Shown one piece after another: positions 4,241 through 5,448 of a stretch of 64,000 nt of DNA; positions within the stretch are counted from its first letter, which is position 1, and the number at the start of each line of letters is the position of its first letter. The notes under the pieces are model-generated. The model had not been told where the DNA came from, searched no databases, and was given only the letters and a program-made list of their open reading frames with translations. The DNA is from an uncultured Rikenellaceae bacterium (lineage in GTDB: Bacteria; Bacteroidota; Bacteroidia; Bacteroidales; VadinHA17), in the NCBI GenBank assembly GCA_964472085.1, contig CAYYIW010000003.1:2893-66892 (forward strand), read 5' to 3'. A program made the translations under genes and the position numbers.

Positions 4241-5448
4241 ATGCTGGAAGGCAAACATATACTTATCGGTATAACCGGAGGTATTGCAGCATATAAAACT
4301 GCAACTATCATCCGGTTGCTTGTTAAGGAAGGCGCCGAGGTAAAGGTGATTATGACAGATCATGCAAAGGAGTTCATTACTCCTCTTACCCTGGCCACAC
4401 TTTCAGGAAATCAGGTACTTAATGAATCCTTTAACCCGGAAAGCGGTCAGTGGAACAGTCATGTTGACCTGGGTTTATGGGCCGATCTGTATCTTATTGC
4501 ACCGGCAACTGCCAACTCGATTGCAAAAATGGCTAACGGGATAGCCGATAACCTTATGCTGACTGCGTACCTTTCTGCCCGTTGTCCTGTTATGATAGCC
4601 CCTTCCATGGACGTGGATATGCTTGGACATCCCTCAACCATCGTAAATCTTGAGACACTGAAGGCATTCGGAAATATTGTTATTGACCCTGCAACCGGCG
4701 AACTCGCAAGCGGACTTACCGGAAAGGGACGAATGGCAGAACCTCAGGAGATTGTGGAAGTGATAAAAGATATGTTCACGAAAAAAAAAACAATAAGCCT
4801 CTGAATGGCAAAAAGATCCTTGTTAACGCAGGACCTACACGGGAACCAATCGATCCGGTACGCTTTATAAGCAACTTTTCATCAGGGAAAATGGGAATAG
4901 CACTGGCTGATGCAGCAGCAGGGTATGGTGCTGAAGTTATCCTTGTACTGGGACCCACAGATATTTCACCTGTTTCGAAGAAGGTTAGGGTCATAAATGT
5001 GACAACGGCTGAATCTATGGCAAAGGAGTGTATTGAATTGTTCCCTGATTGTGACATTGCAATCCTGTCCGCTGCTGTTGCCGATTTTACACCCTCAGAA
5101 GTTCATGATGCAAAAATCAAAAAGAAAGGCAACGAGTTACTTGTCAGGCTCAGGCCGACTACTGACATCGCAAAGGCACTCGGGCAATTGAAGAGGCAGG
5201 ACCAGCTAATTGCCGGATTTGCCCTTGAGACTGATAATGAACTGGAAAATGCATCAGGAAAGCTGAAGAGGAAAAGCCTCGATTTGATTGTCCTTAATTC
5301 GCTTAAAGAAAAAGGTGCCGGATTCGGACACGATACAAACAAGATCACAATAATTGACCGTAACAATATTATTGATAAATTTGAGTTGAAATCTAAAGAA
5401 GAAGCTGCAAGAGATATTCTTGACAAGATAATTTCAATGCTAAAATAG
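4241..5448 (+). CDS. coaBC: Bifunctional CoaBC, split into two frames at an A10 run (4781-4790)
   Basis: 4241-4804 encodes the CoaC flavoprotein (ITGGIAAYK, APATAN, APSMD, GELASGLTGKGRM). The -1 frame from 4789 encodes [30 protein letters not shown] through GFALET to the stop at 5448 (CoaB). Confidence 0.9.

Follow-up and report, generated by a model that had tools for sequence, protein, structure and literature searches.

How can a bacterium make the CoaB half of its CoaBC enzyme when the coaBC gene changes reading frame between its two halves? The question is raised by a 64-kb stretch of DNA (41.9% GC), here called the window, from an uncultured Rikenellaceae bacterium (GenBank contig CAYYIW010000003.1, positions 2,893 to 66,892). 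Its coaBC gene is broken at a run of ten adenines, A10, that lies between the sequences for CoaC, a phosphopantothenoylcysteine decarboxylase and flavoprotein, and CoaB, a phosphopantothenate-cysteine ligase. CoaB activity is normally essential in coenzyme-A biosynthesis. The answer favored here, with a probability of roughly 0.7, is that A10 would be a conserved transcriptional slippage site in the coaBC linker, of the type found in Thermus dnaX and tssM, that yields both CoaC and a CoaC-CoaB fusion.

The coaBC Junction

The sequence at the junction reads GAT ATG TTC ACG AAA AAA AAA ACA ATA AGC CTC TGA in the frame of CoaC (frame 0), which ends shortly after the run (Table 1). The -1 frame is already open upstream of the run, reads AAC AAT AAG CCT CTG at the point of entry, and stays open to a TAG at 5446-5448. 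No ATG, GTG, or TTG was found upstream of 4891 in this frame in the window. The N-terminal segment of CoaB, at 4798-4890, thus has no route to synthesis by ordinary initiation. These observations bear out an earlier reading of the sequence alone (the original prediction), which had described an A10 at 4781-4790 followed by a frame-0 TGA and a -1 frame that continues as CoaB with no ATG before the one at 4891.

The original prediction also held that one extra A would restore a fusion of about 400 aa. In-silico repair to A11 gives a CoaBC protein of 402 aa, and removal of two A's (A8) gives one of 401 aa. A second coaB or coaC was not found in the 64-kb window, which is the sole part of the genome that was inspected.

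A10 is the only A/T run of at least 10 in the window. Its presence alone is not improbable: dinucleotide shuffles give an expectation of 0.70 such runs per 64 kb, and 40 of 100 shuffles contain at least one. The part not due to chance is the exact match of the run to the frame change, together with its conservation in relatives.

Table 1. Coordinates of the coaBC junction in the window.
Feature	Position	Strand	Remarks
A10 run, putatively slippery	4781..4790	+	Encodes KKK of the CoaC-CoaB linker; point of frame change
CoaC frame-0 open reading frame	4241..4804	+	187 aa, tail TKKKTISL plus stop; predicted product of the unslipped A10 mRNA
TAA stop, +1 frame	4794..4796	+	Would terminate products of A9 or A12 mRNAs (CoaC + KKK(K)Q)
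TGA stop, frame 0	4802..4804	+	Overlaps CoaB-frame codons CTG-A
CoaB (DFP domain) frame	4789..5448	+	-1 relative to CoaC, entered at the run
CoaB N-terminal segment	4798..4890	+	31 codons between the run and the first start codon of the frame
First ATG of the CoaB frame	4891..4893	+	Gene callers begin a 185-aa truncated 'CoaB' here

Domain Content of the Two Frames

The frame-0 open reading frame (ORF) encodes a complete CoaC domain. Residues 5-178 of ORF 4241-4801 match the Pfam Flavoprotein family (PF02441, 122 bits) over profile positions 1-161 of 162, and the ORF covers TIGR02113 (coaC_strep) over positions 1-176 of 177. The 185-aa ORF that starts at ATG 4891 matches DFP (PF04127) at profile positions 31-186 only and is missing positions 1-30. 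The repaired fusion matches PF04127 over positions 1-186 of 186, at fusion residues 188-372, and full DFP coverage is obtained only by reading the -1 frame from the run. Read in this way, both halves of the enzyme look intact, as the original prediction had noted.

Family membership depends on the same step. Against TIGR00521 (coaBC_dfp), which has an equivalog cut-off of 219.7 bits, the A11 fusion scores 425.5 bits, while the two ORFs as encoded score 205.9 and 150.3. Because each encoded ORF lies below the cut-off and the fusion lies above it, membership in CoaBC hinges on recoding taking place. Both halves score best against this fused-type model and fall below the cut-offs of the split-type models TIGR02113 and TIGR02114.

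Over its full length, the fusion can be aligned with the CoaBC structure of M. smegmatis (6tgv), and the CoaB structures 5int and 1u7u also align with its CoaB part. In the 6tgv alignment, the KKK encoded by the run lies in the inter-domain loop, which comprises residues 180-189 of M. smegmatis CoaBC (PMC7794376). This places the break in the inter-domain linker, where it had been expected.

The Run across Bacteroidales

When one genome per GTDB species was scanned, some 60 Bacteroidales loci were recovered from metagenome-assembled genomes (MAGs), with 56-80% protein identity. The species of the window has no genome of its own in the scanned set. In tblastn alignments, most of these change frame at query residues ~176-190. 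L111 and several nanopore MAGs (L023, L030, L079, L081, L083) were left out for extra frameshifts. An uninterrupted run of A10-A14 occupies the same alignment columns in 52 species, the window included. Twelve of these are in frame, 32 are in a -1 state that needs one more nucleotide, and 8 are in a +1 state that needs one fewer. The original prediction had asked whether the linker of relatives also carries an A-run that is out of frame and closely followed by a stop in frame 0. Of the 52 species with the run, 40 are out of frame. The in-frame species mostly read NNA AAA AAA AAA AGN and encode 402 aa. Homologues outside Bacteroidales are in frame and lack the run.

Frame state is interspersed on a neighbor-joining tree, where at least 16 changes are required, and sister species can have unlike states: -1 in L032 and +1 in L041, -1 in L028 and +1 in L031 and L057, in frame in L024 and -1 in L034. 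The state is independent of sequencing platform as judged from contig names, with MEGAHIT, SPAdes, and nanopore contigs in every frame class. Besides run length, the flanking bases differ between out-of-frame and in-frame species.

Protein clusters from JGI, ENA, NCBI, and Logan contain the CoaC-only product as well. Among clusters that match the 187-aa ORF, the best 120 are without exception CoaC-only proteins; their lengths span 184-234 aa, and 118 of the 120 measure 184-193 aa. At least 120 other clusters are in-frame proteins of 401-406 aa (exactly 402 aa in 116). A lysine run is present in the linker of 120/120 in-frame clusters, ranging from KK to KKKK, with KKK in 116.

Four relatives (L055, L058, L069, and L078) have a run decayed to A5-A6 and a TTG or ATG start in the CoaB frame that overlaps the end of coaC (junction at ~3030-3070 in locus coordinates). 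From their sequences, these loci appear to have resolved into two ordinary overlapping genes. Decay of the run where a start codon exists fits the run being needed only where a start codon is lacking. The four relatives would show a path from a fused gene, through a slippage-dependent gene, to truly split genes.

Selection on CoaB and on the Run

Pairwise ratios of nonsynonymous to synonymous substitution rates (dN/dS) were calculated by the Nei-Gojobori method. For CoaB, dN/dS is 0.123 between out-of-frame species (median of 214 pairs with dS < 2) and 0.125 between in-frame species, and the corresponding values for CoaC are 0.064 and 0.062. In 40 out-of-frame species, the CoaB frame runs unbroken for ~220 codons. 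The 31 codons that precede the ATG (4798-4890), with a consensus that begins PL.Gk.., have a dN/dS of 0.084 in 39 out-of-frame species. Nearly every out-of-frame species lacks ATG, GTG, and TTG in the CoaB frame between the preceding stop and the NAGPTxExID motif. Constraint on this segment in the absence of a start codon suggests that it is made as protein, though not by ordinary initiation. CoaB appears to be expressed, and it is under normal purifying selection even where it is out of frame.

The run itself is conserved at synonymous sites. Lys codons in the three run columns are AAA in 150/150 cases (AAG in 0), compared with 65% elsewhere in the gene (1023/1574). Within 327 kb around 54 related loci (41.5% GC), 54 of the 55 A/T runs of at least 10 are this site, and six runs have a length of 9. 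The sole other A/T run of at least 10 in the 327 kb is an A10 upstream of coaBC, at position 1300 of L046.

The two frames that do not encode CoaB both close after the run in 52/52 species. The median distances are +6 nt, mostly for a TAA, and +14 nt, mostly for a TGA, and no stop is more than 33 nt away. The 12 in-frame species have the same two stops, at +7 and +15 nt. As a background, both frames close within 15 nt at 4.3% of random positions of the same genes. In 45 of 52 species, the frame-0 TGA is kept at ~+14 nt. It is created by a Leu codon that is CTG or TTG in 48 of 51 species, compared with 35% for Leu elsewhere, and the codon after it has A as its first base in 51 of 51. The locus combines sequence features by which slippage sites are recognized, namely an A/T run of at least 9 at the frame junction, synonymous conservation, and a constrained downstream ORF with nearby stops. 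This pattern supports a functional site and indicates that the run and its flanks are selected at the nucleotide level.

Proposed Mechanism and Alternatives

During transcription, nascent RNA would slip on the oligo-dT template and give mRNAs with A9, A10, A11, A12, and other run lengths. The templated A10 mRNA and the A9 and A12 mRNAs would encode stand-alone CoaC, either 187 aa ending in TKKKTISL or 184-185 aa ending in KKK(K)Q. The A11, A8, and A14 mRNAs would encode the CoaC-CoaB fusion (402 aa from A11), which would be the sole route to the essential N-terminal nucleotide-binding segment of CoaB. Some further fusion may come from ribosomes that slip by -1 or slide on A_AAA_AAA. The proposal that recoding yields free CoaC and fused CoaBC, made in the original prediction, gains comparative support from the relatives, from purifying selection, and from synonymous-site conservation. 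We infer that RNA polymerase is the slipping machine, and the efficiency of slippage and an importance of the CoaC:CoaBC ratio are likewise inferred. The excess of -1-state species (32 vs. 8) would fit insertion-biased slippage.

Transcriptional slippage is preferred over classical -1 programmed ribosomal frameshifting (PRF) because conserved structure was not found, because at least 10 A's are kept though a heptamer suffices, and because eight species are in the +1 state. A mainly ribosomal origin of CoaBC, by a -1 frameshift on A_AAA_AAA or by sliding on the poly-A/Lys tract of an unedited A10 mRNA, is unlikely on these grounds. The heptamer at 4783-4789 does lie in the correct zero-frame phase for a -1 shift (codons AAA 4784-4786 and AAA 4787-4789), and a -1 shift could rescue those 32 of the 40 out-of-frame species that have the -1 state. 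Homopolymeric A heptamers are also known as shifty motifs (PMC4066793), which counts in favor of the ribosome. A heptamer would be enough for such a shift, yet at least 10 uninterrupted A's are found in 52/52 species. Classical -1 PRF is expected to have the same shift direction in all members, whereas the eight +1-state species are not rescuable by a -1 ribosomal shift and would require the opposite direction or a -2 shift. RNAalifold found 0 conserved pairs in 20 species over 70 nt upstream and 90 nt downstream. The 90 nt downstream in the window have a minimum free energy of -14.6 kcal/mol (z = -0.13), which is no better than shuffles. The published 11-A case in tssM proved to be transcriptional (PMC4256274).

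Alternatively, coaC and coaB could be two separate genes, with CoaB initiated at a near-cognate CTG at 4801-4803 and with the A-run as an A-rich Bacteroidetes leader that lacks a Shine-Dalgarno (SD) sequence. The frame relation would then be irrelevant, in keeping with a frame state that drifts freely between species. A protein started at this CTG would hold the whole DFP domain (profile 1-186 from residue 188), and L055, L058, L069, and L078 are truly split with a TTG or ATG start. The explanation is nonetheless improbable. Near-cognate codons generally initiate weakly, the CTG has C rather than A at its position -3, and nearly all out-of-frame species have no canonical start. An A-rich leader needs no unbroken homopolymer, yet AAG is found in 0 of 150 codons. 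The run has decayed in precisely those relatives that have a real start, and the run and both alternative-frame stops are kept in in-frame species.

A pseudogene or recently inactivated coaB, with its function lost or supplied by another gene or by salvage, is very improbable. Another broken gene, a GH2 beta-mannosidase, does occur in the window, and the check for a second coaB covered 64 kb of the genome only. The CoaB frame is nevertheless intact in 40 species, its dN/dS of 0.12 equals the in-frame level and is 0.084 before the ATG, and single-nucleotide polymorphisms (SNPs) within the species introduce no stops and no indels. Loss of function was rejected on dN/dS.

Reproducibility within Species

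Look-ups of exact proteins, together with a pattern scan, yielded seven further contigs of the same species from seven samples (four JGI, three Logan). Their identity to the window is 99.58-99.86% without gaps, and A10 is present in 7/7. Gene callers report the 185-aa gene on every one of these JGI and Logan contigs. Twenty-four SNPs are distributed in differing combinations across the seven contigs, which identifies these as distinct strains and assemblies. The pattern scan, which covered metagenome contigs and permitted runs of 7-13, contributed just one of the further contigs, also with A10. With the 402-aa protein as the query, no in-frame allele of this species was found among 5.8 billion protein clusters, where the closest match has 79% identity. 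The contig of one relative (L008, 86% identical) stops 33 nt short of the run and is uninformative.

Other species are equally consistent. The out-of-frame species P0154 (10 contigs, 3 read) has A11+C in 3/3, and the out-of-frame species P0128 (15 contigs, 10 read from ten samples) has A11 in 10/10. In-frame species also assemble consistently, with A11 in P0024 (14 contigs, 4 read) and A12 in P0001, which indicates that short-read assemblers cope with runs of this length. At the consensus level, run length is constant within four species, represented by 8, 10, 3, and 4 contigs. A10 is real and fixed in the species. The original prediction would have been undermined by an A11 or A8 run and by close relatives that were all in frame; eight independent assemblies agree on A10, and the close relatives are not all in frame.

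These contigs also bear on a DNA-level phase-variable contingency locus, in which replication slippage would toggle CoaBC ON and OFF within populations. The run is mutable over evolutionary time, as the frame-state changes on the tree attest (at least 16), but its length is constant in the contigs read from three out-of-frame species and one in-frame species. The majority allele would moreover be OFF for an essential step, so recoding would still be required, and the chance that phase variation explains the locus is very slim. The least probable explanation is a sequencing or assembly error in a gene that is truly A11 or A8 and in frame, which the original prediction had named as the main alternative. 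In its favor, homopolymers are a classic site of indel errors and several related MAGs are nanopore assemblies, some with extra frameshifts (the loci left out above). Independent contigs agree, however, and error was rejected: A10 recurs in eight independent assemblies, 13 contigs read from two other out-of-frame species are constant, in-frame A11 and A12 species are reproducible as such, short reads assembled with MEGAHIT or SPAdes underlie many of the out-of-frame species, flanking bases differ between frame classes, and the protein clusters contain no in-frame allele.

Possible Role of the Two Proposed Products

A broader interpretation of the slippage site is that CoaB expression would rely on polymerase stutter in most species of the clade, that the frame at the junction is free (three states, at least 16 switches), and that the run and stops are selected because the slip sets the ratio of CoaC-only to fusion subunits in the dodecamer. 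This interpretation is tentative, with slightly less than even odds. CoaBC forms a dodecamer around a core of CoaC (PMC7794376), which makes mixed CoaC/CoaBC particles conceivable. If slippage does occur, CoaC-only subunits may modulate the dodecamer. That in-frame species still have the run and both stops speaks for a degree of selection on dual output.

Several points weigh against slippage as a conserved and functional device. Sister species differ in frame state, implying very different CoaC:CoaBC ratios, which makes a finely tuned ratio doubtful. The data fit equally well a ratchet history, in which frameshifts first became tolerable through slippage and the run was then locked in, and a regulatory role. 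The conserved residues Y-K-P-L account for part of the conservation of the TAA and TGA stops, although the synonymous choices at the stops appear to exceed what these residues require. The neighbor-joining tree is built from one 400-aa protein. All genomes are uncultured MAGs or metagenome contigs, and minority run lengths are hidden by consensus assemblies.

Comparison with Known Systems

Thermus thermophilus dnaX contains an A9 run with stops in both alternative frames, and polymerase slippage produces mRNAs with variable numbers of A and two products, tau and gamma (PMC1088944). coaBC shares with it a homopolymeric A run inside the coding sequence and close stops in both alternative frames, and the 12 in-frame relatives have exactly the layout of Thermus dnaX. 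Unlike in dnaX, the DNA frame in the window and 39 other species encodes the truncated product, and the long product needs a slip. The run in coaBC is also longer (A10-A14) and interrupts a metabolic enzyme at the linker between its domains.

In Citrobacter rodentium tssM, an 11-A run before a premature stop gives rise to transcripts with 10-15 A and to both protein forms (PMC4256274). As in tssM of C. rodentium and Yersinia pseudotuberculosis, the full-length protein of coaBC is out of frame in the DNA, and additional A's bring it back into frame. tssM is an accessory secretion gene, concerns few species, and has an experimentally shown need for both forms, whereas coaBC is essential, extends over dozens of species with three frame states, and is known here from sequence alone.

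In the account of Tamas 2008 and Wernegreen 2010 given in PMC3017870, poly(A)-tract frameshifts of Buchnera and Blochmannia are conserved without gene decay. The endosymbiont tracts resemble coaBC in that the frameshift is kept between species, the frame state varies, and rescue by transcriptional slippage has been inferred or shown. The endosymbionts have AT-rich reduced genomes with more than 100 long tracts per genome and strong drift. In contrast, the coaBC clade has ~42% GC, essentially a single run of at least 10, and conserved flanking stops. Its members appear to be environmental bacteria and not reduced endosymbionts; every sequence comes from a metagenome contig or MAG (JGI, ENA, NCBI, Logan).

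Escherichia coli dnaX represents -1 PRF, with an A_AAA_AAG heptamer, an SD-like element, and a hairpin. coaBC likewise has an in-phase A-rich slippery heptamer and would make two products from one gene. It differs in that no stimulatory structure was found, the conserved homopolymer is much longer, and some species need the opposite shift. As in split coaB/coaC genes of the Streptococcus/Enterococcus type (TIGR02113, TIGR02114), the frame-0 product is a complete stand-alone CoaC, but CoaB in the window has no start codon.

Neither full-text searches nor the GeneTack survey with its supplements nor a 2016 recoding review yielded a published case of coaBC recoding; the Sharma 2011 survey lay outside this coverage. 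The mechanism class is known. Its occurrence in this gene, its spread over dozens of environmental species, and the interchange of three frame states at one site are apparently undescribed, as far as these searches extend.

If transcriptional slippage is confirmed, a normally essential enzyme of core metabolism would join the short list of cellular, non-mobile genes that use a conserved slippage site, and slippage dependence would occur in ordinary environmental bacteria rather than in degenerate endosymbionts. The in-frame, -1, and +1 states of sister species would form a natural experiment on the yield of polymerase slippage and the requirement for the enzyme. Annotation pipelines call a CoaC-only protein and a truncated 185-aa 'CoaB' at this locus, with the consequence that CoA biosynthesis can be misjudged as broken when metabolism is reconstructed from these MAGs. 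Polishing tools may in turn 'correct' a genuine A10.

Other Features of the Window

Gene order around coaBC is shared across the clade: aminotransferase (- strand), BamD-YfiO lipoprotein, RpoZ-like, coaBC, DUF4835, and recN (window 2013-6734; L001-L009 and L092-L110). Gene calls are also uniform across the clade and consist of a 184-193-aa 'CoaBC' plus a 185-aa DFP fragment.

The original prediction stated that no other housekeeping gene shows a comparable break. The window does contain a second broken gene, which is not a housekeeping gene and is not broken at a homopolymer. It encodes a GH2 beta-mannosidase at 61108-62983 on the - strand and consists of two overlapping ORFs in different frames. 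Compared with BtMan2A (2je8), the N-terminal part corresponds to residues 11-309 and the C-terminal part to residues 551-821, so that the catalytic TIM barrel lacks ~240 residues. The two parts meet near 61955-61975, without a homopolymer. The broken gene is either a pseudogene formed by internal deletion or a misassembly.

The second-longest homopolymer of the window is a T9 at 21282-21290, which is intergenic and lies 5' of a lipoprotein-like gene at 21245..20559 (- strand). A 139-aa ORF over the T9 looks spurious and overlaps a carbamate-kinase-like gene on the opposite strand. Slippage-type breaks at this T9 and at the A8/T8 runs of the window were considered and rejected, as these runs either lie between genes or do no harm.

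The 3' end of coaBC contains a block, AAT AWT ATT GAT AAA TTT GAG TTG AAA (5362-5388), that is almost nucleotide-invariant in 54 species, synonymous sites included. It includes a perfect Bacteroidetes -7 box (TAnnTTTG), with the core TAAATTTG at 5376-5383, ~70 nt upstream of the start of the DUF4835 gene (5452/5458). The block is probably an internal promoter for the downstream DUF4835-recN genes.

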